From Candidatus Zambryskiibacteriota bacterium (GTDB lineage Bacteria; Patescibacteriota; Minisyncoccia; Phycocordibacterales; DATDWN01), in assembly GCA_003173855.1 (NCBI GenBank), contig PPGI01000008.1, positions 10,119 through 74,118 of the forward strand: a DNA stretch of 64,000 nt. The letters are read 5' to 3'. Below the pieces are notes generated by a model. The model did no database searches. It had not been told where the DNA came from and worked only from the letters and a program-made list of their open reading frames with translations. How positions within the stretch are numbered: position 1 is the stretch's first letter; the number at the start of each line of letters is the position of its first letter. This document shows positions 1,171 through 62,933 of the stretch, in pieces. The position numbers were made by a program, and so were the translations under genes.

Positions 1171-1180
1171 TGGAAGACAT

Positions 1181-1507: not shown

Positions 1508-3649
1508 ATGAATCGCGACTACACATTAGAAAAAGTCAGAAATTTCGGAATTATTGCCCATATTGATGCTGGTAAAACGACGACTTCAGAACGTGTGCTT
1601 TTTTATACTGGAATGACTCACAAAATCGGAGAAGTGCACGAAGGTGAAACTGTTACTGATTGGATGGAGCAGGAGCGAGAGCGAGGCATCACCATTACGG
1701 CTGCTGCCATTACTTGTTTTTGGAATCCGACCTATATGGCAAAGGGGGCAAAGCCAGAATACCGATTTAATATTATTGATACTCCTGGACACATCGACTT
1801 TACTGCTGAAGTAAAGAGATCACTCCGAGTTCTTGACGGTGCTGTTGTAGTTTTTGATGGAGTTGCGGGAGTTGAACCACAATCAGAAACTAACTGGCGA
1901 TATGCCGATGACGGGAATGTGCCTCGAATTTGTTTTATTAACAAACTTGATCGTACAGGAGCTTCATTTGAAAGATCATATGCTTCGATTCTCGATCGTC
2001 TTACAAAAAATGCTGTCCGAGTTCAAATTCCGATTGGCCTAGAAGACAAACACGAAGGAGTGATTGATCTTTTGAAAATGAAAGCTTTTTATTTTGAGGG
2101 AAATATGGGAATGGCAATTCGCGAAGCAGAAATTCCACCAGAACTTGTTGATGATGCTAAAAAATTCCGAGGAGAATTGATTGAAAAAATTGTCGAACAA
2201 GATGACAGCTTAATGTCTGCATATCTTGAAGGCAAGGAACCAACTTTGGATGAATTAAAAACAACCCTTCGCAAGGCAACTCTTGCAGTAAAACTTGTAC
2301 CAGTTTTTGCAGGTAGTGCTTTAAAAAATAAAGGAGTTCAGCTTGTGCTCGATGGTGTTGTTGATTATCTACCTTCTCCACTTGATATTCCTCCAGTTCA
2401 CGGTATTGATCCGAAAACAGGTGAAGAAATTTTCCGTTCTGCCTCTGACACTGAGCCTTTCTCAGCTTTGGCATTCAAACTTCAGAATGATCCATTCGTC
2501 GGACAATTAACTTTCTTTAGAGTTTATTCTGGAACAATTGAAGCAGGTACTTATGTATATAACGCAACTACAAGTGAAAAAGAACGCCTTGGACGTATTG
2601 TTAGATTGCAAGCTGACAAGCGAGAAGAAGTGAAAAAAGTTTTTGCAGGAGAAATTGCTGCCGCTGTCGGATTAAAATCAGCAAAGACATCTCACACACT
2701 TTGTGATGAAAATAATCCAATTATTTTGGATCCGATTAAATTCGTTGATCCAGTTGTCTCTCTTAGAATTGAGCCAAAAACAAAAGCCGACCAGGAAAAA
2801 ATGGGTATGGCTTTGAAAAAACTTTCTGACGAAGATCCAACTTTTAAAATTTCTTCAAACTCTGACACAGGCGAGTCAATTATTTCTGGAATGGGTGAAT
2901 TACACTTGGAAATCATGGTTGATCGAATGAAGCGCGAATTCGGCGTTGAAGTAAATGTTGGCAAACCTCAAGTTGCATATCGTGAGACAATTCTTGGAAC
3001 TGCTGATGCAGAAAATAAGTACATCAAGCAAACTGGTGGAAAAGGCCAATATGGTCACGTAAAGATTACTCTTAAGCCAATGGAAAAACTGGAGGAAGGT
3101 GCAAAAATTCCTAAAAATGTTAAACGCTATGAAGATTTTGAATTCATTGATTCGATTAAAGGAGGTGTTATTCCACAAGAATTTATTCCAGCAGTTGAAA
3201 AGGGAGTTCATGAAGCAATGGATCGTGGAATTGTGGCTGGATACAAAATGGTCAATGTTTCTTGTGAACTGACTTTCGGTTCATATCATGATGTCGACTC
3301 ATCTGAAATCGCTTACAAAATTGCAGCTTCTCAGGCTTTCCAAGATGCAGCAAAGCGAGCAAAACCTGTTATTTTAGAGCCTATTATGAAAGTTGAAGCA
3401 GTTATGCCAGAGCAATTCATGGGAGATGTTACCGGTTCACTTTCAGGAAAGCGCGGACAAATCGAAGGAATGGATGAGAGGGGAATGCTTCGCGTAATTC
3501 ATGCAAAAGTTCCGCTTTCTGAAATGTTTGGATACACAACTGATATTCGATCAATGACACAAGGACGCGGTTCGGTGATGATGGAGTTTGATCATTACGA
3601 AGTGGTGCCATCTAACGTTGAGAAGCAAATTGTAGAGTCACGGAAATAA
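1508..3649 (+). CDS. fusA: Elongation factor G
   Basis: 713 aa; GTP-binding motifs AHIDAGKTT, DTPGH, NKLD; EF-G domain order. Confidence 0.97.
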   Translation: MNRDYTLEKVRNFGIIAHIDAGKTTTSERVLFYTGMTHKIGEVHEGETVTDWMEQERERGITITAAAITCFWNPTYMAKGAKPEYRFNIIDTPGHIDFTAEVKRSLRVLDGAVVVFDGVAGVEPQSETNWRYADDGNVPRICFINKLDRTGASFERSYASILDRLTKNAVRVQIPIGLEDKHEGVIDLLKMKAFYFEGNMGMAIREAEIPPELVDDAKKFRGELIEKIVEQDDSLMSAYLEGKEPTLDELKTTLRKATLAVKLVPVFAGSALKNKGVQLVLDGVVDYLPSPLDIPPVHGIDPKTGEEIFRSASDTEPFSALAFKLQNDPFVGQLTFFRVYSGTIEAGTYVYNATTSEKERLGRIVRLQADKREEVKKVFAGEIAAAVGLKSAKTSHTLCDENNPIILDPIKFVDPVVSLRIEPKTKADQEKMGMALKKLSDEDPTFKISSNSDTGESIISGMGELHLEIMVDRMKREFGVEVNVGKPQVAYRETILGTADAENKYIKQTGGKGQYGHVKITLKPMEKLEEGAKIPKNVKRYEDFEFIDSIKGGVIPQEFIPAVEKGVHEAMDRGIVAGYKMVNVSCELTFGSYHDVDSSEIAYKIAASQAFQDAAKRAKPVILEPIMKVEAVMPEQFMGDVTGSLSGKRGQIEGMDERGMLRVIHAKVPLSEMFGYTTDIRSMTQGRGSVMMEFDHYEVVPSNVEKQIVESRK

Positions 3650-3818
3650 TTTCTTACTCACTGCATTTCTCGAAGAGACCGTTTCGCTCCGCCAGCGCTA
3701 CGCTCACTAGTTCTCGGCTTTCCGACTTGTCAATGAGCCAGCAAGCTGGACGTTGACAAGACCGAGCTCTCGGCCTGCGAAGTCTCTCCTCGAAACGCAG
3801 TTCGACGAAATTATTTTC
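3642..3818 (+). repeat. GC-rich palindromic MITE-like repeat, copy A (terminal inverted repeats (TIRs) overlap the fusA stop codon)
   Basis: ~95% identical to the reverse complement of 51752..51920. The outer TIRs (gaaataatttc...gaaattattttc) bracket a GC-rich core (3667..3795) containing nested palindromes (ccgagagctcgg; cttgtcaa...ttgacaag). Confidence 0.65.
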
Positions 3819-3881
3819 TTGCTTTTTCATCTTTTAATTTGGGGAAAAGTTGGGCAAAACTTAGCTATTTGCATAAAATTT

Positions 3882-3890
3882 AAATGATAT
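3882..3890 (+). promoter_or_regulatory. Extended -10 promoter element (TGaTATAAT) 10 nt before the ATG at 3900
   Basis: TGnTATAAT match. This implies a very short or leaderless mRNA for the 410-aa ORF. Confidence 0.35.
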
Positions 3891-3899
3891 AATTTATGC

Positions 3900-5132
3900 A
3901 TGAGTACTTCTGTTGCCGAACAAGGTGTCGGTAGAAAAGATAATTATTTAGATATTTTGCATAGGCAGGCTGATGGCCCAGAGTACAAAATTCCTATTAA
4001 GAAAATTGATTTTCGTACGTTACGCAAGCCGACAGATATTGATCCTTTACCTCAAGAAAAAGAAGCCATATCTCCAGAAGAGAAATCAGGAGTAATTTTT
4101 GAAAGTACAGTTTCAAGTCAAAGTTATAAAACACCAAACAAATTAATTGAATATATAAATATTTTAATAAAAGAGAATAGACCTCTCAAAGGTCTGCGGT
4201 GGGATATAGAAGAAGCAAAGTCGCTTGATGAAATAGTCAGTCGACTAACAAAAACAAATTTATTGTCGAAAGAAGAATGTGATGAAGCTATTTCATGCTG
4301 CCAATATCCCAATAAAGAAATTAAATTACATGTTGCATATACTGATCCACATCATGAAAGCACAGATCTGACTTTAGCAAGAAAAGAATACGTTGAAGCA
4401 CTCGTTCCATATTTAAAGAAACTTGAAGAGAAAAAAATTTCTTATCGAAAATTGATGCAAGGTCTCGGTGCTCAAAAAGACATGCCTTTGCCAGGTGAAC
4501 CCAAGGAGCTTGTTAATGCACGAAATGATTATTATAAGGCTAGGAATAAAGATAAAAAATCAAGTGGCCAAATTGAAAAAATCTACGATATCATGGAAGT
4601 TTCAAATCTTCGCCAAGAGATTCTCGCTCTCCAAAGTGAAAGGACGCAAATCTTTATTGATAGAGCAAATAAAAAATGGGAAAAAATTTCAAGAATTGAT
4701 AATGTAAATGTTCTCACAGCATTACTTAGCGATCTAACTTTTTTGTCATATGTTCCTCCAAAAGATGAAAATTATGTTGGTCTTCGTCCAGAAAAAATAA
4801 ATATTCAAGAAGTTATAGAAGAAAAACCTGTTGAAACCAAATCAGAAGTAGTAGAAGAAAAACAAGAGCCAAAGGCAGATCATGCTATTCAGATTTCAAA
4901 TCTGACATTTGATGACAAACCTCTTCAAGTTATTCTAAATACAGATGCCGAACCACAAACTATTCAAGTAATATTTAATGATAATGAAATTGCTTCTGGT
5001 ACGTTGACAAGGAAGGGGCCAAGTATTAAAGTTCATTCCCGTTATAAAGCAGGATTCCTATTGGCAAAGACCATGGAAGAAAAAGCTTTTGAAAACGCGA
5101 ATTCTCTTATAATCAAGAATTTCAAAATCTAA
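3900..5132 (+). CDS. Hypothetical 410-aa cytoplasmic protein inserted between fusA and tuf
   Basis: Long ORF with no transmembrane segment or known motif; coiled-coil-like segment (EILALQSERTQIFIDRANKKWEK). Confidence 0.55.
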   Translation: MSTSVAEQGVGRKDNYLDILHRQADGPEYKIPIKKIDFRTLRKPTDIDPLPQEKEAISPEEKSGVIFESTVSSQSYKTPNKLIEYINILIKENRPLKGLRWDIEEAKSLDEIVSRLTKTNLLSKEECDEAISCCQYPNKEIKLHVAYTDPHHESTDLTLARKEYVEALVPYLKKLEEKKISYRKLMQGLGAQKDMPLPGEPKELVNARNDYYKARNKDKKSSGQIEKIYDIMEVSNLRQEILALQSERTQIFIDRANKKWEKISRIDNVNVLTALLSDLTFLSYVPPKDENYVGLRPEKINIQEVIEEKPVETKSEVVEEKQEPKADHAIQISNLTFDDKPLQVILNTDAEPQTIQVIFNDNEIASGTLTRKGPSIKVHSRYKAGFLLAKTMEEKAFENANSLIIKNFKI

Positions 5133-5428
5133 TGAATATTTTATCAAAGGATATAGTTAAAGAATGGAATATATCCAGTTTGCCGGAAGCAAAACAACAA
5201 GAAATGATTGATCGCATTGGTCGCATAATGTACCAAGCGATTTTGGTGAAATCTTTGGATATTCTTTCTCAAGATGAACAAGATGAACTCGATCAATTAC
5301 TCAATGTTGATTCAACAACTCCACAAGAAGTTTTATTGTTTTTGAAATCAAAAATTCCGACATTTGAACAGTTGGTAATAGAGGAGAGAAAAAATCTAAA
5401 AGAAGATTTGGTTATCGAAAACATCTAA
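5132..5428 (+). CDS. Hypothetical 98-aa acidic protein
   Basis: ORF overlapping the upstream stop (TAATG). No recognisable family. Confidence 0.45.
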   Translation: MNILSKDIVKEWNISSLPEAKQQEMIDRIGRIMYQAILVKSLDILSQDEQDELDQLLNVDSTTPQEVLLFLKSKIPTFEQLVIEERKNLKEDLVIENI

Positions 5429-5431
5429 GGC

Positions 5432-5460
5432 TTGACAGATATTCGCACTTTGTCTACTAT
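5432..5460 (+). promoter_or_regulatory. Promoter TTGACA-N17-TACTAT for tuf
   Basis: Exact TTGACA (5432-5437), 17-nt spacer, TACTAT (5455-5460). Confidence 0.55.
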
Positions 5461-5473
5461 TTAATTTGTCGCA

Positions 5474-5496
5474 CAGGCGATTTTTTTAATCGCCTG
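5474..5496 (+). promoter_or_regulatory. Hairpin in the tuf leader (caggcgat-TTTTTTTA-atcgcctg)
   Basis: 8-bp perfect stem. Shares the 14-mer GCGATTTTTTTAAT with the rplC leader hairpin at 8488..8509. Confidence 0.4.
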
Positions 5497-5597
5497 GAAA
5501 TTCCCAGAATTCAACGATATATAAGTTTCTCGAACGCTGAATTTTTGGAGTTTCCAAAATGGCAAAAGTTTATTATTAGCATTAATTAAAAAATATT

Positions 5598-6794
5598 ATG
5601 GCTGAGTTCGATCGTTCAAAGCCACATGTGAATGTGGGAACAATTGGTCACGTTGACCACGGTAAGACAACATTAACAGCAGCAATTTTGACTGTACTTG
5701 GACGCGCAGGCCAAGGCTTCGGCGCAAAAGTAAAAGGAGTTGATCAAATTGACTCTGCTCCTGAAGAAAAAGCACGAGGAATTACTATCGCGCTTTCTCA
5801 CAATGAGTACGAGACACCTACAAGACACTACGCTCACGTAGATGCTCCTGGACACGCTGACTATATTAAAAACATGATCACTGGTGCCGCTCAGATGGAC
5901 GGTGCAGTATTGGTAGTTGCCGCAACAGACGGTGTTATGCCTCAAACACGAGAGCACGTACTTTTGGCAAAACAAGTTGGTGTGCCAAAGATTATCGTTT
6001 TCCTAAACAAATGCGATATGGTGCCTGACAAAGAACTCATTGATTTGGTTGAGGAGGAAGTTCGAGAGCTCCTTACAAAACAAGGTTTCGATGGTGCAGG
6101 TGCTCCAGTTATTCGAGGTTCAGGTCTTAAAGCTCTTGAGTCAAAAGACAATAATGACGAATGGGCAGCAAAAATTCTAGAACTTGCAAACGCATTGGAT
6201 ACTTATTTCCCAATTCCAGAGAGAGATCTTGAAAAGCCATTCCTTATGCCAGTTGAAGACATTTTCTCAATCGAAGGACGAGGAACTGTGGTAACTGGAA
6301 GAATTGAACGAGGAATCGTAAAAGTTGGTGAAGAAGTAGAGTGTATTGGTTTGAAAGATACAGCAAAATACACTGTTACTGGTATTGAAATGTTCAACAA
6401 ATCACTTCAAGAAGGCCAGGCTGGAGACAACGCTGGAATTCTTCTTCGAGGTGCTAAAAAAGAAGACATTCATCGAGGACAAGTTTTGGCAAAGCCAAAG
6501 ACTGTAACTCCTCACACAGAATTTATGGCAGAAGTTTACATTCTAAAGAAAGAAGAAGGTGGACGACACACAGCATTCGTTACAGGTTACAAACCACAAT
6601 TCTACATTCGAACTACAGACGTAACAGGAGAAGTTTCTCTAAACGAAGGTGTTGAAATGGTTATGCCAGGAGACACAGTTACTTTCAAAGTTAAACTTGT
6701 TGCTCCAGTTGCTCTAGAAGAGAAGACTCGATTTGCGATCCGCGAGGGTGGTAAGACAGTCGGCGCAGGAGTTGTAACAAAAATCCTCGCTTAG
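5598..6794 (+). CDS. tuf: Elongation factor Tu
   Basis: 398 aa; [18 protein letters not shown] motifs. Confidence 0.98.
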
Positions 6795-6920
6795 TAAACT
6801 TCCAAATTTAGCGATCTCCTTGTTTCGAGTTTGAAAATGTTCGTCACTTTACTACTTGTAAAGCTTCTCACATTTTCAAACTCTCAACTTCGGATCTCAT
6901 CTAAATTCTGAAAGTTTAGA
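6795..6920 (+). repeat. Conserved ~125-nt structured 3'-UTR element, copy M1 (begins TAAACTTCCAAATTT at the tuf stop codon)
   Basis: Alignable to the element after rplB (11088..11210). Central hairpin ctttac-tactt-gtaaag (6847..6863) shows compensatory changes relative to ccttac/gtaagg in the other copies. Confidence 0.55.
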
Positions 6921-6922
6921 AA

Positions 6923-6947
6923 AATACCGCACTCGCGGTATTTTTTC
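6923..6947 (+). terminator. Rho-independent terminator after tuf (taccgcactcgcggta + T6)
   Basis: Perfect hairpin followed by TTTTTT. Confidence 0.7.
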
Positions 6948-7022
6948 CCTTACAGGGACTGTACACCTTTCGCACATAACAGTGCTCAAGGTCTTGCGAA
7001 GCTTCGCTTCTCACGCCTAACA

Positions 7023-7051
7023 TTGCATTCAAAATTGAAATTTTTTATAAT
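7023..7051 (+). promoter_or_regulatory. Promoter TTGCAT-N17-TATAAT driving a GC-rich non-coding unit
   Basis: Consensus -35 and -10 with a 17-nt spacer. No ORF >=60 aa in 6795..7378. Confidence 0.5.
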
Positions 7052-7057
7052 ACTAAA

Positions 7058-7338
7058 TGGAGCAGTCGACACACAACCACGCTGAAGTAAGCGAAACGGC
7101 ACTATGAAACGAGATCTCGGCCTCCGGAAGTTTCAAGCCAGCAAAGCGTGTGTGGGAGAGCAGCGAATCTGCTCGTTACATACCTCACAGTAGGCACGCA
7201 CCCCATGTGTCGGGGACTCGTTGAGAGCCGCAGTAGTGACTTCTCCATCGTCCGCATCGGTAGAAAACCAAATCGGTTTCTCCGAGGCGGTTTTCTTTTA
7301 TACTTTACCCCGTACTGAGCTTTGCTCTAGTACTGGGG
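7058..7338 (+). ncRNA. Candidate structured non-coding RNA (~280 nt, GC ~55%) between tuf and rpsJ
   Basis: GC-rich island in an AT-rich genome, with no ORF. It has its own consensus promoter and ends in a hairpin (ccccgtact...agtactgggg, 7308..7338). Identity unknown; it did not match my recall of RNase P, SRP or 6S RNAs. Confidence 0.3.
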
Positions 7339-7367
7339 TTGAACAAAATTTAAATCTCTGTTAGTAT
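7339..7367 (+). promoter_or_regulatory. Promoter TTGAAC-N17-TAGTAT for rpsJ
   Basis: TTGAAC (7339-7344), 17-nt spacer, TAGTAT (7362-7367), 11 nt before the ATG. Confidence 0.55.
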
Positions 7368-7378
7368 CGAGCTTACAA

Positions 7379-7807
7379 ATGCCAACAGCAAAAAAGGAAC
7401 CAAAAGCAAAAAAAGCAGCAGCTCCTAAAAAAACTGCAGCAAAAACTCCTGCAAAAGCTGCTGCTCCAAAGGTTACAAAAGCTAAAGCAGCTCAAGATGT
7501 TATTTCAAAGCTACGAATCCGAGTTCGAGCTTACGAATACAAAATCTTAGATCTTTCAGTAAAACAAATTATCGATACAGCACTTCGATATGATGCAAAA
7601 GTTGAAGGCCCTATTCCACTTCCAACAGAACACAAAAAATATACTGTAAACCGATCATCATTCGTTTACAAAAATGCTAGGGAACAATTTGAAATGAGAA
7701 TTCACAAGCGATTGATTGATATTTTAAATCCTACACCAAAAATCATGGAGGCTCTTACAAATATGTCTTTGCCTAGCGGAGTTAACATCGACGTAAAAAT
7801 AATTTAA
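7379..7807 (+). CDS. rpsJ: 30S ribosomal protein S10 with an ~45-aa Lys/Ala-rich N-terminal extension
   Basis: C-terminal ~100 aa match S10 (RIRVRAYEYKILD...HKRLIDIL). The N-terminus (AKKEPKAKKAAAPKKTAAKTPAKAAAPK) is histone-H1-like. Confidence 0.9.
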   Translation: MPTAKKEPKAKKAAAPKKTAAKTPAKAAAPKVTKAKAAQDVISKLRIRVRAYEYKILDLSVKQIIDTALRYDAKVEGPIPLPTEHKKYTVNRSSFVYKNAREQFEMRIHKRLIDILNPTPKIMEALTNMSLPSGVNIDVKII

Positions 7808-7810
7808 AGA

Positions 7811-7842
7811 CGAAACCACCTCACGATGAGGTGGTTTTGGTA
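7811..7842. terminator. Bidirectional terminator (accacctcacgatgaggtggt + TTTT)
   Basis: 8-bp perfect stem plus T-run, between rpsJ and a convergent membrane ORFan. Confidence 0.65.
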
Positions 7843-7843
7843 T

Positions 7844-8110
7844 TCATCGCCATGCAGACATGATGATTTTCTTTCTATGTCTGATAACGATATGGATGAG
7901 AATAAAACAGAGTGTGAGTAGTGACCAGATTGTTACACTAATGTAATCATTCAGATATACGCAAGCAGTTACTCCAGCTCCAACCATTGCTATGTAGGAC
8001 AAAAGAGTTCTTGTTGAATAATATGTACTTTTTTCCCTCCATATTCCGATAAGAGAGATGATGAAAACACAAAGCCAAAATATCCCAAAGGTTCGGAAAA
8101 GGAAAGTCAT
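7844..8110 (-). CDS. Hypothetical small membrane protein (2-3 transmembrane segments); the ORF track extends it to 8164 but the SD-supported start is at 8110
   Basis: Hydrophobic ORF. GGAGG SD 5 nt before the internal ATG (MTFLFRTF...). TTGACA-N17-TAATCT promoter upstream on the minus strand. Ends in TGA. Confidence 0.4.
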   Translation of the reverse strand: MTFLFRTFGIFWLCVFIISLIGIWREKSTYYSTRTLLSYIAMVGAGVTACVYLNDYISVTIWSLLTLCFILIHIVIRHRKKIIMSAWR

Positions 8111-8208
8111 TCTTGCCTCCGCACTTAGATTATTTCTGTTTATAATTAATGTCAATAAATACACTTGTTTTCGGTTTTTCTCTATGGTAGTTTCTTCTGG
8201 GAGGAAAA

Positions 8209-8421
8209 GTGTTTATTGCTTCAAAAAAACCTCATCGTATTGGAGACAAAGGACATGGTGCATATCCAACTTCTGATGGAAAGATTGGAAAAGCCCCATT
8301 TGTTGTTCTTCGAGAAGCTACATTTGAGGATTGGTTGAAACAAGGTCTTGAAGCGGGCTTCTCTGAACAAGAGATGATTTCTAAAAGGTTCACTTATTTT
8401 TATGAGGTAAGTGTGGACTGA
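8209..8421 (+). CDS. Hypothetical 70-aa protein (GTG start)
   Basis: GGGAGG SD 4 nt upstream; followed by a terminator hairpin at 8423..8447. No known family. Confidence 0.3.
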   Translation: MFIASKKPHRIGDKGHGAYPTSDGKIGKAPFVVLREATFEDWLKQGLEAGFSEQEMISKRFTYFYEVSVD

Positions 8422-8422
8422 G

Positions 8423-8447
8423 CCGAGCAGAAAACGCTCGGCTTTTC
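8423..8447 (+). terminator. Hairpin terminator (gccgagc-agaaaac-gctcggc + TTTTCT)
   Basis: 7-bp perfect stem plus T-rich tail. Forms the hairpin part of the hairpin-promoter module upstream of rplC. Confidence 0.55.
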
Positions 8448-8453
8448 TAAAAC

Positions 8454-8482
8454 TTGAACAAAAAATGGTTATCTGCTAGTAT
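8454..8482 (+). promoter_or_regulatory. Promoter TTGAAC-N17-TAGTAT for rplC
   Basis: TTGAAC (8454-8459), 17-nt spacer, TAGTAT (8477-8482). Confidence 0.55.
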
Positions 8483-8487
8483 GACCG

Positions 8488-8509
8488 AATCGCATTTGCG
8501 ATTTTTTTA
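8488..8509 (+). promoter_or_regulatory. Leader hairpin plus T7 (aatcgc-att-gcgatt-TTTTTTT) in the rplC 5' UTR; attenuator-like
   Basis: Intrinsic-terminator-like structure between the promoter and start codon. Shares GCGATTTTTTTAAT with the tuf leader. Confidence 0.4.
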
Positions 8510-8588
8510 ATGGTAGCTAGCGAAGGGCAATGTTGTGACGGATCTCGTCGCATTACTGTCCGCAAACCGCTACCGAGACAAAAATAAC

Positions 8589-9203
8589 ATGGGTAAATTC
8601 ATTTTGGCGACAAAACAAAACATGACACAAATCTTTGACGACAAAGGTTTAGTTCATCCTGTAACAGTTCTAAAAGCTGGCCCAATGACAGTGACACAAG
8701 TTAAAAATACAGCAAAAGACGCTTACAATGCTGTTCAATTTGGATATGGAGCTCGCCGAGAAAAAAATATCTCGAAAGCGCTGAAAGGTCATATGAAAGG
8801 TGGAAACTTTATGCATGTGAAGGAGATGAGAACAGAAGGTGAGAGTGAATTGAAGCTTGGTGATAGTGTTGATGTATCAACATTTTCAGTAGGTGACAAA
8901 GTAACTGTCTCTAGTATTTCAAAAGGAAAAGGTTTTCAAGGAGGTGTTAAGCGACATGGTTTCAAAGGGGGTCCACGATCACACGGTCAAAAACACTCTG
9001 AACGTGAACCAGGATCTCTAGGAGGAGGTGGAAGAGACGGAGGTCGAGTAGCAAAGGGTAAAAGAATGGCAGGTAGGATGGGAGGTGTAAGGATTACATC
9101 AAAGGGTCTTACAGTTGTTTCTGTAAAACCAGAAACAGGAGAAATTTTTATTCGAGGAGCTGTTCCTGGAAGACGGGGAACATTAGTTGAGATCAGAAGT
9201 TAA
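8589..9203 (+). CDS. rplC: 50S ribosomal protein L3 (the ORF track starts at GTG 8535; ATG 8589 matches the L3 N-terminus MGKFILATKQNMTQIF)
   Basis: L3-like sequence throughout; Gly-rich loop near the C-terminus. Confidence 0.9.
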   Translation: MGKFILATKQNMTQIFDDKGLVHPVTVLKAGPMTVTQVKNTAKDAYNAVQFGYGARREKNISKALKGHMKGGNFMHVKEMRTEGESELKLGDSVDVSTFSVGDKVTVSSISKGKGFQGGVKRHGFKGGPRSHGQKHSEREPGSLGGGGRDGGRVAKGKRMAGRMGGVRITSKGLTVVSVKPETGEIFIRGAVPGRRGTLVEIRS

Positions 9204-28058: not shown

Positions 28059-28068
28059 TTTGTATTTG

Positions 28069-28451
28069 TGGAGATGGTGGTATCGAAACCACGTCCATAT
28101 ATAGAATTGAAACGAATCTACAGTGCTTAGGATATTTAATTGTTTAAAACACAAAGCTTAGAACAGCCAAAATACTTTGTATTCGAGTTCCTATTTTTCG
28201 GAAGTTTCCGGAACAAGGAACTTCTATAACCTCAATTTATATCAATCAACTTCTCGTATGAGATATGAGAGAAGCGACCGTCCCTTAGGCTAAAGCGTAA
28301 GAGAAAGTATAGGCTCCGTAAGGAGAAACTACACCCTTAGACAAGTTTTTTACACTTAATCTTTCCAAACCGTTTTAGGAGAATTTGGTGCTCCGCATTG
28401 CACGTATCAATGTCGAATATATGTCAAAACCTGTCATCCCCGCTCTTTGTA
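28069..28451 (-). ncRNA. ssrA: tmRNA (ssrA), ~383 nt
   Basis: 5' GGGGAUG pairs with 3' CAUCUCC, including the G3:U70 pair that marks alanine charging. tRNA-like T-arm (GUGG-UUUCGAUA-CCAC); discriminator A; CCA not encoded. Internal tag reading frame GCC UAU ACU UUC UCU UAC GCU UUA GCC UAA (AYTFSYALA*) at 28285..28314. Adjacent to smpB. Confidence 0.75.
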
Positions 28452-31758: not shown

Positions 31759-31807
31759 GCAGTGTTCACGCAAAAGGCCGGCAACCCGCCGGCCTTTCCT
31801 ATACATG

Positions 31808-31881
31808 TCCGCCTGCTTGGACTCGAACCAAGGACCCCAGAGGTATAAGCTCTGTGCTCTAACCAACTGAGCTACAGGCGG
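31808..31881 (-). tRNA. tRNA with anticodon UAU (predicted Ile, AUA-reading)
   Basis: Canonical cloverleaf: acceptor CCGCCUG/CAGGCGG; D-arm GCUC-AGUUGGUUA-GAGC; anticodon stem CAGAG/CUCUG with loop CUUAUAC; T-arm CUUGG-UUCGAGU-CCAAG; discriminator A; CCA not encoded. Confidence 0.75.
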
Positions 31882-50479: not shown

Positions 50480-51703
50480 TTATTCGTTAATTACTCGGAG
50501 AACTTCTTCGAGAGTTGTTTGTCCGGACAAAGCTTTGCCTAAGCCATCTTCAAGCATCGTGGTCATTCCTTGTTTCGTTGCCAAGTTTTTTATTTCAGCG
50601 GCTGATGCTTTGCGTAAGATGGCTTCACGTATCACATCATTTGCTACAAGCACTTCGTTAATGCAAATTCTTCCTGAGTATCCGCTTTTGTTGCACTTAT
50701 CACAGCCCTTTCCTTTGTATAAAGTTTCGTCATTATATTTTTTCCCAAGCTGATAAAGAGTTTCTTTCATCGATTTTGTAATTTCGATTTTTTCTTTGCA
50801 GTGAGTGCAAATTTTTCGAACTAGTCTTTGGCCAATTGCAATTGAAACAGTCGAAGCGACTAAATATTCTTCTATGCCCATATCGAGCAAACGGGGAAGA
50901 GTTGTAGCGGCATCATTTGTGTGCAAAGTTGAGAGCAAAAGATGGCCTGTTAGAGCGGTATTTACGGCAATGCCTGCTGTTTCAGAGTCGCGAATTTCAC
51001 CAACCATAATAATATTTGGATCTTGTCGCAGAATTGAACGCAAGCCATTGGCAAATGACAGTCCAGTTTTGGCATTCACTTGGATTTGCTCGATATCAGA
51101 AACTGCATATTCGATAGGATCTTCGATAGTAATAATGGAAACTTCAGGAGAATTAAGCATCTTGATCAAAGTGTAAAGCGTAGTTGTCTTTCCAGAGCCA
51201 GTCGGACCTGTTGCAAGAATCATTCCGCTTGATTTTTTCATTGCTTCTAGAATTTTTTTGCGATCATTTTCTGAAAAACCGAGCATCTCGAGCGTATATT
51301 GTTCCGCTTTGTCAGACAAAAGCCTCAAAACTGCATTTTCACCATGGTAAGTTGGCACAATTGAAACACGAAGATCAACAAATGTTTTTCCATCTGGAAA
51401 AGTATGTCGGAATCTTCCATCTTGAGTAGCTTGATGCTCGTCCGTTCGAAGTTTTGAGAGAACTTTTATGCGAGAAATTATTTCGTTATGAATTGTTTTT
51501 GGAAAAGAAAATGCTTCTTGGAGTACTCCATCGATTCTAAATCGAACTCGAATGTCGTCTAGTCTTGGATCAATGTGAATGTCAGAAACATGAGTCTCGT
51601 GTGCTTTCTCAACTAAATAGTCAACCAGATTGATTATTGAAACATCTTTACCACGTGTAATTTCTTTTTCTAATTTGTCCCATTTTTCCTTAGTAGTTGT
51701 CAT
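50480..51703 (-). CDS. Type IV pilus assembly ATPase, short GspE/PilB family with a tetracysteine motif
   Basis: Walker A GPTGSGKTT, Asp box, His box; CxxC...CxxC. Confidence 0.85.
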   Translation of the reverse strand: MTTTKEKWDKLEKEITRGKDVSIINLVDYLVEKAHETHVSDIHIDPRLDDIRVRFRIDGVLQEAFSFPKTIHNEIISRIKVLSKLRTDEHQATQDGRFRHTFPDGKTFVDLRVSIVPTYHGENAVLRLLSDKAEQYTLEMLGFSENDRKKILEAMKKSSGMILATGPTGSGKTTTLYTLIKMLNSPEVSIITIEDPIEYAVSDIEQIQVNAKTGLSFANGLRSILRQDPNIIMVGEIRDSETAGIAVNTALTGHLLLSTLHTNDAATTLPRLLDMGIEEYLVASTVSIAIGQRLVRKICTHCKEKIEITKSMKETLYQLGKKYNDETLYKGKGCDKCNKSGYSGRICINEVLVANDVIREAILRKASAAEIKNLATKQGMTTMLEDGLGKALSGQTTLEEVLRVINE

Positions 51704-51751: not shown

Positions 51752-51920
51752 AAATTTCTCTGGTTAGTATGTTTTGAAAAGAGACTTCGCAGGCCGAGAG
51801 CTCGGTCTTGTCAACGTCCAGCTTCGCTGGTTCATTGACAAGTCGGAGAGCCGAGAACTAGTGAGCGTAGCGCTGGCGGAGCGAAACGGTCTCTTGAAAA
51901 ATATACTAACCAGAGAAATT
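51752..51920 (-). repeat. GC-rich palindromic MITE-like repeat, copy B (the right TIR overlaps the stop codon of the SDR gene)
   Basis: Reverse complement ~95% identical to 3642..3818. ~19-bp TIRs (aaatttctctggttagtat / atactaaccagagaaatt). GC-rich core 51781..51895. Confidence 0.65.
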
Positions 51921-52653
51921 ATAAATTCTGTCCTTGGTCAATTGGATAAACGTAGCCGGAAGCCATTGTGATTTCTGACAAATACAAAGCAAGTTTTGCA
52001 AATTGTTCAACCGCTTCTTCATCGCTAATTCGGTATTTAAGAGGGGATTCATCGCGGATTGCCTGCCATTCAATCTTCGAAATATCTTCTGGACGAAGAA
52101 TTGGACCGGGAGCGATGGCGTTTACGAAAATTCCTTTACCTGCGAGTTCTGTGGCCAGAGCTTTGGTCATATTTGCGATCGCAGCTTTGGTTACAACGTA
52201 AGGAAGATAGCCAGAATAAATTTTACCAAGAGATGTTCTGTCAGCCACATTTATAATATGTCCGCCATTTGGCATTATTTTTGATCCAATTTGTGATGGC
52301 CAGAATGTTCCAAAAATATGTGCATCTAAATTTCTCTGCCAATCTTTCTCGCTAATGTTTTCAAATTTAACAGGAGTAAAAACTGAAGCAAGATTAATTA
52401 AAATATCAATTTTTCCAAATTTCTTTTTTATTTCACTAACAGTCTTTTCAACACTCTCGCGATTTGAGACATCGCATTGTATTGCAAGACCCTGAACTTT
52501 ATATTTTTTTGCATTTTTTACAATTTTTTCTGATTCGTGAGCAGAACTTCTATAACTTGTGACAATATTTACTCCATTTTGTGCAAGAACTTCAGCAATT
52601 CTCTGGCCAATTCGCTTTCCACCAGTAATCCAAGCAGTTTTTCCTTTGAGCAT
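51919..52653 (-). CDS. Short-chain dehydrogenase/reductase (SDR) family oxidoreductase
   Basis: TGGKRIG Rossmann motif; catalytic YxxxK (YVVTK). Confidence 0.8.
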   Translation of the reverse strand: MLKGKTAWITGGKRIGQRIAEVLAQNGVNIVTSYRSSAHESEKIVKNAKKYKVQGLAIQCDVSNRESVEKTVSEIKKKFGKIDILINLASVFTPVKFENISEKDWQRNLDAHIFGTFWPSQIGSKIMPNGGHIINVADRTSLGKIYSGYLPYVVTKAAIANMTKALATELAGKGIFVNAIAPGPILRPEDISKIEWQAIRDESPLKYRISDEEAVEQFAKLALYLSEITMASGYVYPIDQGQNL

Positions 52654-52737: not shown

Positions 52738-52983
52738 ATGCCTGATGAAAATATTCACAAACGTTTCCTGCTTGTCTATACTTTCGGCAATCGTGAAAGG
52801 ACGGATGAAATAGACAATGCCACTCTTGAAGAAGCGAAACACAAAGCAGTTCGAATCTTGAATAATAAACATGCGGAATTGGCCGCTCATGCAACAGAGG
52901 GTACTGTTGTAGAAGTCAAAGGAGAACTATTTCAAAGAATCCAGTGTTTCAACAGTAAGGATTTTTTCCACCCACCTTTTTGA
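52738..52983 (+). CDS. Hypothetical 81-aa protein
   Basis: TAGGAGG SD; tandem TGA-TAA stops. No known family. Confidence 0.35.
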   Translation: MPDENIHKRFLLVYTFGNRERTDEIDNATLEEAKHKAVRILNNKHAELAAHATEGTVVEVKGELFQRIQCFNSKDFFHPPF

Positions 52984-53009: not shown

Positions 53010-53576
53010 TTATCTAGATTCGCCTTCGAAATTAGGCATTACGATGCTCCACTGCATAGTTTGGGTGTTTAGTTTCAAATAAGCACTTTTACCAACTGAT
53101 GGTCTAGCAGTCATTGGTTCATCTGGTTTTCGAACAGCATAATTTACGACAATTACATTTTTTTGTATTGGATTTGGACTCAAGTTTATTGTTTGTGGAG
53201 CAATCCTGTCACCTAAAAAATATCCGTCGGAACCGATGTAACCATCAGGTGTATTTAATGCAGCGACAGCATAGTAAAATGTTCCTGAACCACCGCGATT
53301 TTGAGTAAGAAGAAAAACTACATCTTCTCTTCCATCGTTATTTAAATCTGTTTTAAAATCATTTCCAAAATAAGTCGTTACAATTTTTGTAGATGAACCA
53401 GGAGCTGCTTCACTTTCTGCATTTCCATTAATAAGTTTTACATTTACTCCATCAATTGAGTACTCAGCATTTTTATAATCAGTTATTTTTTCATAATTTA
53501 TTTGTCCACTAAATTTCGAAAGAAAATAACCTCCTATTAAAAACAAAACAATAGCTACAATAATTTTTTTATACAT
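53010..53576 (-). CDS. Membrane-anchored/secreted hypothetical protein (188 aa)
   Basis: N-terminal transmembrane segment; DLNNDGREDVV (FG-GAP/VCBS-like Asp-rich loop). Confidence 0.45.
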   Translation of the reverse strand: MYKKIIVAIVLFLIGGYFLSKFSGQINYEKITDYKNAEYSIDGVNVKLINGNAESEAAPGSSTKIVTTYFGNDFKTDLNNDGREDVVFLLTQNRGGSGTFYYAVAALNTPDGYIGSDGYFLGDRIAPQTINLSPNPIQKNVIVVNYAVRKPDEPMTARPSVGKSAYLKLNTQTMQWSIVMPNFEGESR

Positions 53577-53603: not shown

Positions 53604-53635
53604 TTAAAGGGCAGTGGCCTAAGCCATTGCCCTTT
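53604..53635. terminator. Terminator hairpin (aagggcagtggcctaagccattgcccttt)
   Basis: 10-bp stem plus T tail. Confidence 0.55.
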
Positions 53636-53897
53636 GTCTTACTCTGTTACCACCACGACTTGAAATTTCTGCGAGCTTCTCTGGAGTTAGCCTGGCAAAA
53701 CCTCGCCGCTTTGGATGAAGGATATCTTCGTCTTCTATTACGAGATATCTCATAGCAGCACGAAGTGATGACAAGAGGATACGGCGCTTACCCATGACTT
53801 TCACAGTTTCGAAACGTCGTGCTTTCATCAAAATATAAACACCTGTTGTGCTTATTCCCATTTTTCGGGCCGTTTCTGATTGAGTACAAGATCTCAT
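53619..53897 (-). CDS. Helix-turn-helix DNA-binding protein (92 aa), relatively GC-rich
   Basis: SETARKMGISTTGVYILMKARRFETVK is an HTH. Its start overlaps the stop of the upstream AlpA-like ORF (ATGA). Confidence 0.5.
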   Translation of the reverse strand: MRSCTQSETARKMGISTTGVYILMKARRFETVKVMGKRRILLSSLRAAMRYLVIEDEDILHPKRRGFARLTPEKLAEISSRGGNRVRQRAMA

Positions 53898-54049
53898 CCA
53901 ATCTTTTTTATCTGGAAAATTTTGTATTGATTTGAAAGGTCTTCACGCTTTAGATTGCCCTTCCGTATCCATCTCCAAACAGTTGCTTCGCTGACACCTA
54001 TGTACTTCGCAAAGTTTGTTACACGTTCTGAAAATAAAGGTTCATCCAT
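53894..54049 (-). CDS. AlpA/excisionase-family HTH protein, 51 aa (below the ORF-track length cut-off)
   Basis: Read by hand: MDEPLFSERVTNFAKYIGVSEATVWRWIRKGNLKREDLSNQYKIFQIKKIG*. VSEATVWRWIRKG is an AlpA-type HTH. Sits immediately 3' of tRNA-Ser. Confidence 0.55.
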   Translation of the reverse strand: MDEPLFSERVTNFAKYIGVSEATVWRWIRKGNLKREDLSNQYKIFQIKKIG

Positions 54050-54103
54050 ATGAAATCCTTTCCGAAAGTACTGTATACCTGACTTTTTATTTGGTCAAAA
54101 TTG

Positions 54104-54192
54104 CGGAGACGGATGGATTCGAACCATCGGTGCCTTTTAAGGGGCACACCTCTTTAGCAAAGAGGCACGTTAGACCACTCCGACACGTCTCC
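54104..54192 (-). tRNA. tRNA-Ser (anticodon GCU), type II with a long variable arm
   Basis: Acceptor GGAGACG/CGUCUCC; anticodon stem CCUCU/AGAGG with loop UUGCUAA; 20-nt variable arm; T-arm GAUGG-UUCGAAU-CCAUC; discriminator G. Confidence 0.8.
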
Positions 54193-54243
54193 AATTGTTT
54201 GTTAGATTAACATAATTTTGATGCGGGGTATACTTAATATATT

Positions 54244-54594
54244 ATGAAGATTAAATATCACATCTACGGAGCTTTGTTGGGAATAGTTGTCGGATTTATT
54301 AGTGTCCACACTTTATTTATCGGTTCGGCATGGGCAATTGTTTTCTGGGGAATTGTTGGATTGGTTCTTGGATGGTTTACGGAAAAAGAAAATGTGAGAA
54401 TAATCGGAGTGCATTATGGTTTTATGCTTGTACTCTCGTTTCTTCTTTTTGGATTTCATGGAAAAAGCGAAGTTTTTTTGAAATTTTTACTTGCTTCAAT
54501 CGGTGCAAGTATAATTGGTGGGCTTTGTGGATGGTTAAATATCTATGTTGGTAATTGGTTAAAAAATAAATTATGGAGAAAAAATATTATTTAA
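54244..54594 (+). CDS. Membrane protein (4 transmembrane segments), hypothetical
   Basis: Hydrophobic ORF. Confidence 0.45.
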   Translation: MKIKYHIYGALLGIVVGFISVHTLFIGSAWAIVFWGIVGLVLGWFTEKENVRIIGVHYGFMLVLSFLLFGFHGKSEVFLKFLLASIGASIIGGLCGWLNIYVGNWLKNKLWRKNII

Positions 54595-54878
54595 TAAAAC
54601 TTATCGGTCCGCGACAAAATTTTGCTCTGACTATTACTGATTCAGAGAAAAATTTGATGATGGAGCATGGAAAATATTGGCAGGATATTATAAAAGCAGG
54701 ACATGTTGTTATTTTCGGTCCAGTCTTTGATGCAAATGATCAATGGGGAATAGTGATTGTTGAAACAGAAGATGGAAGCAAACCAAAAGAGTGGATTGAA
54801 GGCGATCCGACAATAAAATCAAATACAGGATTTAGCTACACTATTTCTCAAATTAAGGCAGGATTTGTCAGAAAGTAG
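54573..54878 (+). CDS. YciI-like small protein
   Basis: 101 aa; H..Y......AG.VV.FGP motif pattern typical of the YciI family. Confidence 0.5.
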   Translation: MEKKYYLIKLIGPRQNFALTITDSEKNLMMEHGKYWQDIIKAGHVVIFGPVFDANDQWGIVIVETEDGSKPKEWIEGDPTIKSNTGFSYTISQIKAGFVRK

Positions 54879-59742: not shown

Positions 59743-61470
59743 ATGGATATTCTTGAAGCACTTGTACAAAAGGGCATACTGCCAAAACAAGAGGTAAAAA
59801 CTGTTACTGATGAAGCCGTTTCCTCGGGCCTTACATTGGAAGAAGTTTTAATTAAACGCGGAGTTTCCCCGTACGATATTTTGGCGGCCAAAGGAGAATT
59901 TTTTGATGTGCCTGTTAGAAACTTGGGTGAGGGAGTAGATATTCCGCGTAAAACTCTCGAATATATTCCAGAAGATTCAGCAACACATTACAGAGTAGTT
60001 CCGCTCGGTGTTAATGACGGAGTGCTAGAAGTTGGTATGACTGATCCGGATGATATCGAGGCAAGAGATGCACTCAATTTTATTTCAACAAAAATTGGAA
60101 TGCCTTTTAAGATTTTTTTGATTACTGAAGCTGATTTTAATAAAGTTCTAGCTCTTTACAAAGGACTAACTGGAGAAATTTCAAAATCACTTTCAGAAAT
60201 TGAACTTGAACTTAAAAATGAAATTACAGGTGATGAGGATAAAGACAAAGTTGATGACGATACTGCTCTTGGCCAAGGAAAAAATATTAAAGAAGATGCG
60301 CCTGTTACAAAAATCGTGGCCACAATTCTTCGTTATGCTACAGACGGCAACGCTTCTGATATTCACATTGAACCGCGACGAGACAATGTTCGAGTGAGAT
60401 TTCGTGTTGACGGCATTATGAATACTTCTCTTACTCTTCCATCAAAGGTACACTCGGCAGTGATCGCTCGTATAAAAATTCTCTGCAACATGAGGCTTGA
60501 TGAAAAAAGAAAACCTCAAGACGGCCGTTTTACAGCTCGAATTGAAGGCCGCAAAATTGATTTTCGTGTTTCAACATTTCCAACTTTTTTTGGTGAGAAA
60601 GTGGTGATGAGGCTTCTTGATCAGCAAAAAGGTGTTAAAAAATTGGATCAACTTGGACTTTCAGCTTCAAATCTTGAAACAATAAGAAAAGCAATAAATA
60701 AATCATACGGATTAATTTTAATTTCCGGTCCTACTGGATCAGGAAAAACTACTACGCTGTATTCAATGCTCAATGAAATGGATTTAGAACACCAGAATGT
60801 GCTTTCTCTTGAAGACCCAATTGAATACAACATTGATGGAATGTCGCAGTCTCAAGTTCAAGGGGATATCGGTTACACCTTTGCTTCAGGTTTGCGTACA
60901 ACACTTCGACAAGATCCTGACGTCATCATGGTGGGTGAGATTCGAGATAAGGAAACTGCGGAGCTGGCTATTCAAGCGGCCCTTACTGGCCATTTGGTGC
61001 TTTCAACAATTCACACGAACGGTGCTATCGGAGTTATTCCGCGATTAATTGATATGGGTATTGATCCATATTTAATTGCCCCAACACTTATTTTAGCAAT
61101 CGCTCAGCGTTTGACTCTAAGCCTTTGTGAGGGTGCCGGAACAGAAATGCCAATTGAAGGAAGCTTAAAATTGATGATTGATAAGCAATTTAGCGATTTA
61201 CCGCAAAAATATTTAAGCGAATTGGATTTTACAAAAGTTGTTTATAAGGCTAGCGGGACAAGTGATTGTCCGAGCGGCACTCGAGGAAGAATTGCCGTTA
61301 TGGAAGTGATGGAAATGGATAAGGATGTCGAAAATATAATATTAAAAAATCCAACAGAGCCTGAACTGACAAAATTGATGAGAACTAAGGGCATGCTCAT
61401 GATGAAAGAGGATGCCATTATAAAAGCCATGCATAGGCTGATTCCGTTCGAAGAGGTTAATATGTTATAA
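59743..61470 (+). CDS. pilB: Type IV pilus assembly ATPase PilB (full-length GspE family with an N-terminal T2SSE_N domain)
   Basis: 575 aa; Walker A GPTGSGKTT; Asp and His boxes. Confidence 0.9.
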   Translation: MDILEALVQKGILPKQEVKTVTDEAVSSGLTLEEVLIKRGVSPYDILAAKGEFFDVPVRNLGEGVDIPRKTLEYIPEDSATHYRVVPLGVNDGVLEVGMTDPDDIEARDALNFISTKIGMPFKIFLITEADFNKVLALYKGLTGEISKSLSEIELELKNEITGDEDKDKVDDDTALGQGKNIKEDAPVTKIVATILRYATDGNASDIHIEPRRDNVRVRFRVDGIMNTSLTLPSKVHSAVIARIKILCNMRLDEKRKPQDGRFTARIEGRKIDFRVSTFPTFFGEKVVMRLLDQQKGVKKLDQLGLSASNLETIRKAINKSYGLILISGPTGSGKTTTLYSMLNEMDLEHQNVLSLEDPIEYNIDGMSQSQVQGDIGYTFASGLRTTLRQDPDVIMVGEIRDKETAELAIQAALTGHLVLSTIHTNGAIGVIPRLIDMGIDPYLIAPTLILAIAQRLTLSLCEGAGTEMPIEGSLKLMIDKQFSDLPQKYLSELDFTKVVYKASGTSDCPSGTRGRIAVMEVMEMDKDVENIILKNPTEPELTKLMRTKGMLMMKEDAIIKAMHRLIPFEEVNML

Positions 61471-61482
61471 TTTTAAATTAAT

Positions 61483-61869
61483 ATGACTGATAATCCACTG
61501 AAAATACTTTTGATTGATGATGACCGATTTCTTCTTGATATGTATTCGTTAAAATTTAAGAAATCAAATCTTGATGTCGACACTTCTTCTACAGCTCAGG
61601 CAGCACTTGGTAAAATTAAAGATGATGACAAATACGATATAATTCTTCTTGATATCATTATGCCTGGAATGGATGGCTTAGAGTTTCTAAAAAATTTAAG
61701 AGAACAAAAATTGGCAATGAAAGCTACAATTATAATGCTTACAAACCAAGCAGATGATTTTGAAAAAGCCAAAGCTTTTGATGTTGATGGCTATATTATA
61801 AAAGCAACGACAATTCCATCCGAAGTTGTTGAGCAAGTTCTTGCAATTTACAAAAATAAAAAAAGATAA
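61483..61869 (+). CDS. Stand-alone response-regulator receiver domain (CheY/PilH-like)
   Basis: DD...D phospho-acceptor pocket (LLIDDD, ILLDIIMPGMDG), K near the C-terminus. Confidence 0.8.
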   Translation: MTDNPLKILLIDDDRFLLDMYSLKFKKSNLDVDTSSTAQAALGKIKDDDKYDIILLDIIMPGMDGLEFLKNLREQKLAMKATIIMLTNQADDFEKAKAFDVDGYIIKATTIPSEVVEQVLAIYKNKKR

Positions 61870-62933
61870 TGGCAGATTACAAGAAAATATTTGAAGATTT
61901 GATTGCAACAGTCTTGCGTGAAGATGCATCAGACCTTCACCTGGGGGAGGGACGACAACCAATACTTCGTGTCTCAAGTTTTCTCATTCCTTTAACAAAC
62001 CATCCAGCGCTTTCACGTACAGACTTAAAAGCAATGCTTGATGAATTGTTGGATCCTTCAAAAAAAGAAATTTTTTTAGAAAAAAAAGAAGTTGATTTTG
62101 CTTATAGCCACAATAACATGGAACGTTTTCGATGCAACGCTTTTTTCCAATCTGGAAAAATCGGCATTGCAATGAGATACATTCCTAAAAAAATAAAAAC
62201 TTTTGAGGAATTAAATCTTCCGCCAATTTTAAATACGTTCGTTAATAAACAGCAAGGGTTTTTCCTGGTTGTAGGTCCGACAGGACAGGGAAAATCGACA
62301 ACGCTAGCAGCTATGATTGATCGAATCAATGAACAGCGGCTAGAACATATTATTACTATAGAAGACCCGATTGAATATATTTTTGAATCGAAAAAATCAA
62401 TCATTGATCAACGTGAAGTGCTTCAAGATACTCCAGATTTCCATTCCGGACTTCAGGGAATGTTCCGGCAAGACGTTGATGTAATGATGATTGGTGAAAT
62501 GAGAAGTCCAGAAGATATTTCAACTGCCGTCACTGCGGCAGAAACCGGTCACTTAGTTTTTTCTACCTTGCATACTAACACTGCATCTCAAACTATTGAT
62601 CGTATTATTGACTCGTTTCAGGCTGGCCAACAAGAACAAATTAGTTTGCAGCTTTCAGCGAGTTTAATCGGCATTCTTTCACAGCGATTGATTCCGAGAA
62701 TTTCTGGAGGACTTATTCCAGCATGTGAACTGCTAATCAATACAACGGCAGTGGCAAATCTTATTCGAGACAAGCGAACACATGAGATCAATTCAATTAT
62801 TGAAACAAGTGCTGAAGCAGGCATGATTGACCTCAATCGATGTTTAACTGATCTCGTAAGAGCAGGTGAAATTACAATAGAGAATGCATATTTGTATTCT
62901 CAAAATCCAAAAGGATTAGAAAGAACACTTTAA
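61869..62933 (+). CDS. pilT: Twitching-motility retraction ATPase PilT
   Basis: 354 aa; Walker A GPTGQGKST; PilT-like AIRNLIRE-type motif (AVANLIRD). Confidence 0.88.
   Translation: MADYKKIFEDLIATVLREDASDLHLGEGRQPILRVSSFLIPLTNHPALSRTDLKAMLDELLDPSKKEIFLEKKEVDFAYSHNNMERFRCNAFFQSGKIGIAMRYIPKKIKTFEELNLPPILNTFVNKQQGFFLVVGPTGQGKSTTLAAMIDRINEQRLEHIITIEDPIEYIFESKKSIIDQREVLQDTPDFHSGLQGMFRQDVDVMMIGEMRSPEDISTAVTAAETGHLVFSTLHTNTASQTIDRIIDSFQAGQQEQISLQLSASLIGILSQRLIPRISGGLIPACELLINTTAVANLIRDKRTHEINSIIETSAEAGMIDLNRCLTDLVRAGEITIENAYLYSQNPKGLERTL

Follow-up and report, generated by a model that had tools for sequence, protein, structure and literature searches.

Do two small helix-turn-helix (HTH) open reading frames (ORFs) lying directly 3′ of a tRNA gene mark the end of an integrative element, or something more ordinary? 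The question is raised by positions 53,604 to 54,192 of a 64,000-nucleotide (nt) stretch of contig PPGI01000008.1 from a Candidatus Zambryskiibacteriota bacterium (the window, by whose positions all features below are given unless a relative is named), where an intact tRNA-Ser(GCU) gene is followed on the same, minus strand by ORFs of 51 and 92 amino acids (aa). A preliminary description had read this layout as the degraded left end of a tRNA-inserted island, with an AlpA-like gene next to the attachment site. In the current study, we find that the two ORFs are a single gene interrupted by a 1-nt shift (53619 to 54049, minus strand); it is unremarkable, an accessory gene that is broken and lies in a variable region flanked by a tRNA, and its product adds one more member to a domain class already known. 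The fuller reading, in which a 143-aa DNA-binding gene from a rare chromosomal family was split by a deletion shortening a run of seven adenines to six (A7 to A6), within a flexible stretch holding no recognisable integrative element, is in our judgement likely.

Both ORFs lie where they had been described, on the minus strand and overlapping at an ATGA. The 51-aa ORF (53894 to 54049) encodes a first winged helix and ends at a premature TGA (53894 to 53896), and the 92-aa ORF (53619 to 53897) encodes a second winged helix and a basic tail. The frame of the latter is open upstream of its ATG, where it reads ...KKDW-MRSCTQ, and lengthening the A6 run at 53904 to 53909 by a single A joins the two frames into a protein of 143 codons, ...FQIKKDWMRSCTQ..., referred to here as the repaired protein. 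Homology searches by word index returned either the query alone or six proteins, whether started from the 92-aa ORF, the repaired protein or the family alignment, and look-ups of the exact 92-aa and 188-aa products yielded no recorded contig. The only type of search to recover the family was an exhaustive phmmer (HMMER) scan of 1.84 billion representative proteins, which gave 26 proteins for the 92-aa ORF. The best full-length homologues are some 150 to 230 aa long; the 92-aa ORF aligns to their residues ∼54 to 141, and their N termini resemble the 51-aa ORF. Homologues P0002 to P0013 are single ORFs.

The repaired protein aligns end to end with this family and keeps all six of its invariant and all nine of its nearly invariant positions. 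The restored residues D50 and W51 fall on family-conserved columns, W51 being nearly invariant, and their codons (53898 to 53903) come after the shift site but before the 92-aa ORF has its ATG, and thus outside that ORF. The family hidden Markov model (HMM) matches the two ORFs consecutively, at profile positions 3 to 54 and then 53 to 147, and a BLASTP alignment of the repaired protein with the homologue from one relative (locus L010) crosses the junction uninterrupted. Each ORF by itself matches HTH_17, in keeping with the HTH similarity noted for them earlier, at scores (25.7 and 20.9 bits) under the cut-off of 27; the repaired protein matches HTH_17 (PF12728) in two stretches at 42.7 bits. 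The AlphaFold2 model of the repaired protein has a predicted local distance difference test (pLDDT) score of 86, and a helix at residues 41 to 53 (pLDDT 93 to 95) spans the break.

These data bear directly on the proposal, made in the preliminary description, of two separate and translationally coupled small genes, one AlpA-like and one HTH. Each ORF does have its own ATG, the 92-aa ORF is annotated alone in the source record, and neighbouring genes of this genome often overlap at an ATGA or stand 1 nt apart. Nevertheless, we consider this arrangement extremely improbable given homologues that span both halves as single ORFs, conserved D-W codons stranded ahead of the second ATG, one continuous helix modelled across the junction, and a score short of the HTH_17 threshold for either ORF alone.

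A second way to keep the locus functional as it stands would be programmed −1 frameshifting: in the manner of dnaX or IS3-type orfAB, one gene would yield a 51-aa single-HTH peptide and a 143-aa protein with both domains in tandem. The shift site, the A6 run followed by G (53903 to 53909, minus strand), reads A_AAA_AAG in the 0 frame of the 51-aa ORF, with the TGA two codons on; A_AAA_AAG is the classical −1 slippery heptamer of dnaX and IS3 elements. A −1 slip there would give ...IKK-DWMRSCTQ..., which matches the family consensus, and both halves are otherwise free of lesions, with the conserved residues all kept. The window gene resembles the known sites in heptamer, frame and nearby 0-frame stop. 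The heptamer is not independent evidence, however, because it arises in this frame automatically once an A is removed from A7G. Unlike the dnaX and IS3-family sites, moreover, the window site has neither stimulatory elements nor conservation: there is no downstream RNA structure (z = −0.66) and no GGAGG-like Shine-Dalgarno stimulator visible upstream, and homologues are recovered as single ORFs across the junction (although that of L010 has no in-frame start). Four other long ORFs of the window, all of them ordinary, also contain A_AAA_AAG in frame. As a by-product of the A7-to-A6 change the site is explained fully, and we regard recoding as very unlikely. Were it true, the ratio of the two products in a bacterium of the candidate phyla radiation would tune a regulator linked to the tRNA-Ser locus in the window and in relatives L010 and L082.

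The single broken gene is thus the reading that we carry forward. The frameshift is the sole lesion in it, which suggests a recent event. Across the window, 136 A/T runs of at least 6 nt occur within 44 intact long ORFs; the assembly is thus not full of homopolymer errors, and a real mutation is somewhat likelier than an assembly artefact.

What kind of protein would the uninterrupted gene encode? With its two HTH_17 domains and basic tail, the repaired protein has the winged-helix fold of the Xis/MerR type, and its HTH domains belong to the excisionase/MerR-type winged-helix class. Family members P0003 (46 bits) and P0007 (43.3 bits) pass TIGR01764; the window protein, at 26.9 bits against a cut-off of 28.8, falls just short. 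The most conserved segment of the family is C-terminal, reads RRGFARLTPEK..EIS.RGG, and corresponds in the window to the RRGFARLTPEKLAEISSRGG motif (53649 to 53708, minus strand), with invariant G117, F118 and A119. It resembles the KGG motif of stress proteins. Alone it has no direct Pfam match, but phmmer ties it to the small proteins P0015 and P0017, which pass Pfam KGG (PF10685).

The AlpA-like label did not survive closer inspection. Pfam Phage_AlpA (PF05930) matches neither ORF (E ≤ 1) nor the repaired protein (E ≤ 0.05), the Pfam matches being to HTH_17, and the 51-aa ORF to which the label was attached is a fragment of a gene. PHROGs and NCBIfam searches with the separate ORFs gave only weak, generic HTH, excisionase and transposase-HTH matches. 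In structural comparisons the window protein matches AlpA less well than Xis, BldC or MerR, and unlike the AlpA genes of P4-like tRNA-inserted islands, its gene has no tyrosine integrase beside it. The excisionase-family/MerR-type domain (PF12728, TIGR01764), as exemplified by Xis of mycobacteriophage Pukovnik (PDB 4j2n), is of the same fold class. The window protein differs from that type in having two domains in one chain and a KGG-like tail, in lacking a partner integrase or att site, and in belonging to a family that we did not find in phage, plasmid or viral collections. BldC of Streptomyces and RacA of Bacillus are chromosomal MerR-/Xis-like DNA binders unrelated to mobile elements; these are single-domain proteins that multimerise on DNA, whereas the window protein has two domains fused in one chain, and we found no sequence-level membership of it in BldC or RacA. 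The sole tandem-domain match, a weak one, was to TraN of plasmid pIP501 (PDB 4p0y/4p0z), which has two tandem excisionase-like winged HTH domains. TraN works within a conjugative type IV secretion system, of which the window has none, and it lacks the KGG-like tail. A literature search returned nothing relevant.

Domains of the excisionase fold beside a tRNA gene naturally invite the idea of an integrative-element remnant: an element would have inserted where tRNA-Ser(GCU) has its 3′ end and later lost its recombinase and its far att site, so that an Xis-like gene in decay and a pair of orphan ORFs (52.66 to 54.10 kb) would be all that is left. We regard this as unlikely, though less so than the readings dismissed above. 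The tRNA itself is as described earlier; ARAGORN and Infernal (RF00005, 53 bits) agree on its placement at 54103 to 54192 on the minus strand, and it serves as the anchor of the variable region. It was also correct that no integrase is present, since none was found among the ORFs of 49 to 58 kb by ORF list or Pfam. The check that had been suggested, for a direct repeat copied from the 3′ end of the tRNA, came out negative: no exact repeat of at least 13 nt exists anywhere in the 64 kb, a pattern search with the terminal 23-mer and 16-mer at up to three mismatches gave no att-like match there either, and blastn-short was likewise negative.

Nor is the composition of the locus unusual. The two ORFs had been called GC-richer than their background, but their GC fraction is 0.418 against a mean of 0.381 (standard deviation 0.043) for equal-size segments of the window, and 18% of those segments are at least as high. 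A value of 0.431 for the whole 53,604 to 54,192 stretch is inflated by the tRNA, whose GC fraction is 0.556, and the neighbouring 188-aa ORF stands at 0.325.

The far limits proposed for the island fare no better. Its cargo had been thought to continue towards a short-chain dehydrogenase (SDR) gene (51919 to 52653, minus strand; Pfam adh_short_C2, 1.8e-40), with a neighbouring inverted repeat as a possible boundary. The SDR gene adjoins PilB in relatives L004, L005, L075 and L076, where it is 65 to 74% identical, and is therefore not cargo; both it and the inverted-repeat element lie outside any such segment. The inverted repeat itself has other copies in unrelated positions (described below) and so does not mark an island boundary.

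What the relatives do support is the variability of the region. A PilB-anchored scan gave 77 loci from Nomurabacteria/Paceibacteria-type genomes, which we turned so that PilB reads on the plus strand, opposite to its direction in the window; PilB of the compared relatives is 72 to 80% identical to that of the window (77 to 78% in L003, L004 and L005). A common frame, ComF/PilM ... tRNA-Ser(GCU) ... PilB/PilC, is filled differently from one relative to the next. The tRNA ends 4 bp before PilB in L003; in L004, 16 bp separate the tRNA from the start of the SDR gene, which is followed by PilB; a 1235- to 1347-aa protein and a malic enzyme lie between tRNA and PilB in L010 and L073; and in L006 the first gene of an ∼8.3-kb stretch is that of a large serine recombinase, the distance from tRNA to PilB thus ranging from 4 bp (L003) to 9.7 kb (L006). 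The 3′ half of the window tRNA is identical to that of its L004 and L005 orthologues. The 80 nt beyond the tRNA 3′ end differ in all ten loci compared, while a promoter-like motif upstream of the tRNA is shared, and we conclude from this combination that the 3′ flank of the tRNA is a real hot spot. In this respect, the preliminary description's tRNA-inserted island held up in part: the flank is indeed variable, and one relative holds a recombinase island there, but the idea of an attL end with an alpA/xis gene fails for want of a recombinase, an att repeat and a GC shift.

The L006 island illustrates what an element at this site can look like. It is a candidate integrated element (208 to 8600) in a Minisyncoccia metagenome-assembled genome (MAG), extending up to the malic-enzyme gene. 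Its 549-aa large serine recombinase, with Resolvase and Recombinase domains (261 to 1910, minus strand), is encoded by a gene that overlaps the 3′ end of the same tRNA-Ser(GCU) by 40 nt, and the ∼8 kb of cargo includes an Mrr-like nuclease. On the same flank, L002 (6116 to 8425) has an S24/LexA-like repressor recognised by Pfam, whose adjoining ORFs look by sequence like a Dam-type methylase and a nuclease, a restriction-modification (R-M)-like pair. L022 (8152 to 9133) encodes a SocA/Panacea antitoxin and a 124-aa partner on the 3′ side of a partner tRNA, tRNA-Ser(ACU). All of this speaks for the remnant, as do the frameshift and the strong divergence of the HTH gene and the ∼1.45 kb (HTH gene, 188-aa ORF and 81-aa ORF) that the window has in excess of L004. 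The 52.66- to 54.10-kb content is absent at this site from L003, L004 and L005, in which every flank differs. Like tRNA-flanked islands and hot spots in general, the region varies in content from the tRNA 3′ end onwards, with recombinase, R-M or toxin-antitoxin-like cargo in relatives. Unlike them, the window has no recombinase, att repeat, compositional shift or recognisable mobile-element gene. Furthermore, the family HMM found no tandem-HTH member within the L006 island, and the relatives are too distant for an insertion to be told from a deletion. No tRNA-derived repeat was found in the relatives, L006 included.

The distribution of the family also points away from mobile elements. It is rare, and its placeable members are Parcubacteria (e.g., a Taylorbacteria MAG). 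Searches of IMG/VR (viral) and of phage and plasmid collections, the latter two by tblastn, gave no match to the family, and JGI metagenome and IMG/VR scans for relatives were negative or gave one weak fragment. In eight independent contexts, no recombinase lies near a family member, and the neighbours are chromosomal and mostly housekeeping genes: LigA with pilins (L078), with ComF (L079) or with another multi-HTH_17 protein (L081); ThrC and SWIB (L084); S12/S7/EF-G (L087); and YidC/Jag (L088). In the remaining two (L010 and L082), an intact copy lies between divergent tRNA-Ser(GCU) and tRNA-Ser(ACU) genes and adjoins ComF/PilM. The cognate recombinase and att sites that an excisionase role calls for are absent from the window and from all eight contexts. 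An Xis-type fold and a neighbouring tRNA are insufficient to call an integrative element. The 51-aa “AlpA-like” ORF resembles an island end, yet it is the first part of the interrupted gene, and the value of the present result is mainly corrective.

Several observations nonetheless weigh against a resident chromosomal gene recently broken by mutation. Identity between the window copy and the copies of L010 and L082 is only 30%, against 66% between the latter two; PilB of the window and L010 is 77% identical, so that the frameshifted HTH gene has diverged much further than the core genes on either side. It also stands on the 3′ side of tRNA-Ser(GCU) and on the same strand, while the L010 and L082 copies are on the other side. 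Taken together, the low identity and the opposite side of the tRNA mean that the window copy, which belongs to a different subgroup from these two, may be a separately acquired paralogue rather than a resident gene. The family is patchy, being found in one of the 77 PilB loci of close relatives, which would fit accessory or mobile cargo, and both neighbouring ORFs, of 188 and 81 aa, are orphans. Because large serine recombinases can do without long att repeats, the missing repeat is weak evidence against an element of that class. Finally, a real mutation and an assembly error would look alike in the assembled sequence. A single inversion was considered as a route from the L010/L082 layout, with the HTH gene between divergent tRNAs, to that of the window, but none gives the observed order.

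Putting the evidence for the broken gene together, we suggest the following course of events. The gene lies in a flexible interval, bounded by the conserved blocks ComF-PilM and (SDR-)PilB-PilC, in which the tRNA 3′ flank has apparently been remodelled repeatedly, in one relative (L006) probably by the serine-recombinase island. The intact product, a putative DNA binder, may bind as an intramolecular dimer to a pair of adjacent half-sites in DNA, its domains joined by the helix that now spans the break, and could act as a local transcriptional or architectural factor. Loss of 1 nt from the poly(A) tract (A7 to A6, 53904 to 53909) would then have split it into the 51-aa and 92-aa ORFs. The window copy would accordingly be a recent pseudogene or an assembly error, giving at most two pieces, the second restarted at the ATGA overlap.

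Beyond this one gene, the comparison defines a small, uncharacterised family with two excisionase-type winged helices and a KGG-like tail, placeable in Parcubacteria, three copies of which (window, L010 and L082) adjoin tRNA-Ser(GCU). It also presents the ComF/PilM - tRNA-Ser - PilB/PilC interval as a recombination hot spot of Paceibacteria-like genomes, and the L006 serine-recombinase island as a possible study case for mobile elements in reduced genomes.

The L010 copy has a peculiarity of its own. At 4260 to 4341 (minus strand), no in-frame ATG, GTG or TTG precedes the first HTH of the otherwise intact tandem-HTH gene, and an ATG with a Shine-Dalgarno sequence sits in another frame, which stops after six codons. 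As far as can be judged from its sequence, this copy would have trouble translating its first domain.

Two further ORFs lie between the broken gene and the SDR gene, and neither belongs to a known family or was found in the relatives' loci. One encodes 188 aa with a hydrophobic N terminus (53010 to 53576, minus strand; a singleton cluster), the other 81 aa (52738 to 52983, plus strand). On the 5′ side of the tRNA, a 116-aa membrane ORF and a YCII-domain ORF (54244 to 54878, plus strand) are likewise absent from the relatives' loci.

The tRNA is preceded by ∼10 to 25 nt by the motif ATGTTAATCT (54205 to 54225), which reads (A)ATATGCTAATCT in the relatives and has the same position in most of them (L002, L004, L005, L010, L073 and L082); it is probably the −10 region of the tRNA promoter. 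In L010 and L082, a similar box, TAGGTATAAT, stands ahead of the HTH gene. In the gap between tRNA and HTH gene of the window, a consensus scan gave a weak sigma-70-like match (TTGACC-17 nt-TACAGT, 9 of 12 positions; 54070 to 54098, minus strand), which says nothing of function. An Rfam search of 51.6 to 54.3 kb at a permissive threshold returned the tRNA and chance matches only.

The inverted repeat, whose presence at 51752 to 51920 had been reported earlier, has arms of 23 nt that are 96% complementary, at 51753 to 51920. It folds on the minus strand into a long, branched hairpin (−72 kcal/mol, z = −7.8) directly after the SDR stop codon. A second copy, 90% identical, lies at 3646 to 3796 of the window (plus strand) and a third in L002 (1794 to 1921, minus strand), with a weak fourth match in L076 (8 to 129, minus strand). 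The copies are ∼125 to 170 nt long and share a branched fold whose core is conserved; the two window copies do not have the same outer stem, yet in each it remains self-complementary. Every copy lies directly 3′ of the stop codon of the upstream gene and in the same orientation relative to that gene. No Rfam family matched it. With its terminal inverted repeats and several copies, this dispersed repeat is like a miniature inverted-repeat transposable element (MITE), and could be a MITE targeting terminators or, alternatively, an RNA of the 3′ untranslated region.

The partner of tRNA-Ser(GCU) in the relatives is a second class II tRNA with the anticodon ACU (loop TTACTAA), found head to head with it in seven of them: L002 (8655 to 8742), L004 (7 to 94), L005 (7968 to 8057), L010 (3552 to 3639), L022 (6834 to 6923), L073 (4469 to 4556) and L082 (1661 to 1748). 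It scores 56 to 57 bits in Infernal, above the GCU tRNA. A tRNA-Ser with a wobble A is unusual for bacteria and, if modified to inosine, could also read AGA. In the window, the membrane and YCII ORFs take its position.

Elsewhere in the window, a tmRNA gene lies at 28066 to 28441, and a tRNA-Ile with the anticodon UAU (tat) at 31807 to 31881 (minus strand); such a tRNA would read AUA directly, rather than by way of the lysidine-modified CAU tRNA. In addition to the PilB gene at 50480 to 51703, a second, diverged PilB-type ATPase gene occupies ∼60350 to 62440 (plus strand), and inverted matches of 59 to 60 nt at 75% identity link it to 51100 to 51590 (minus strand), inside the PilB gene. The type IV pilus/competence ATPase thus appears to be duplicated within 10 kb.

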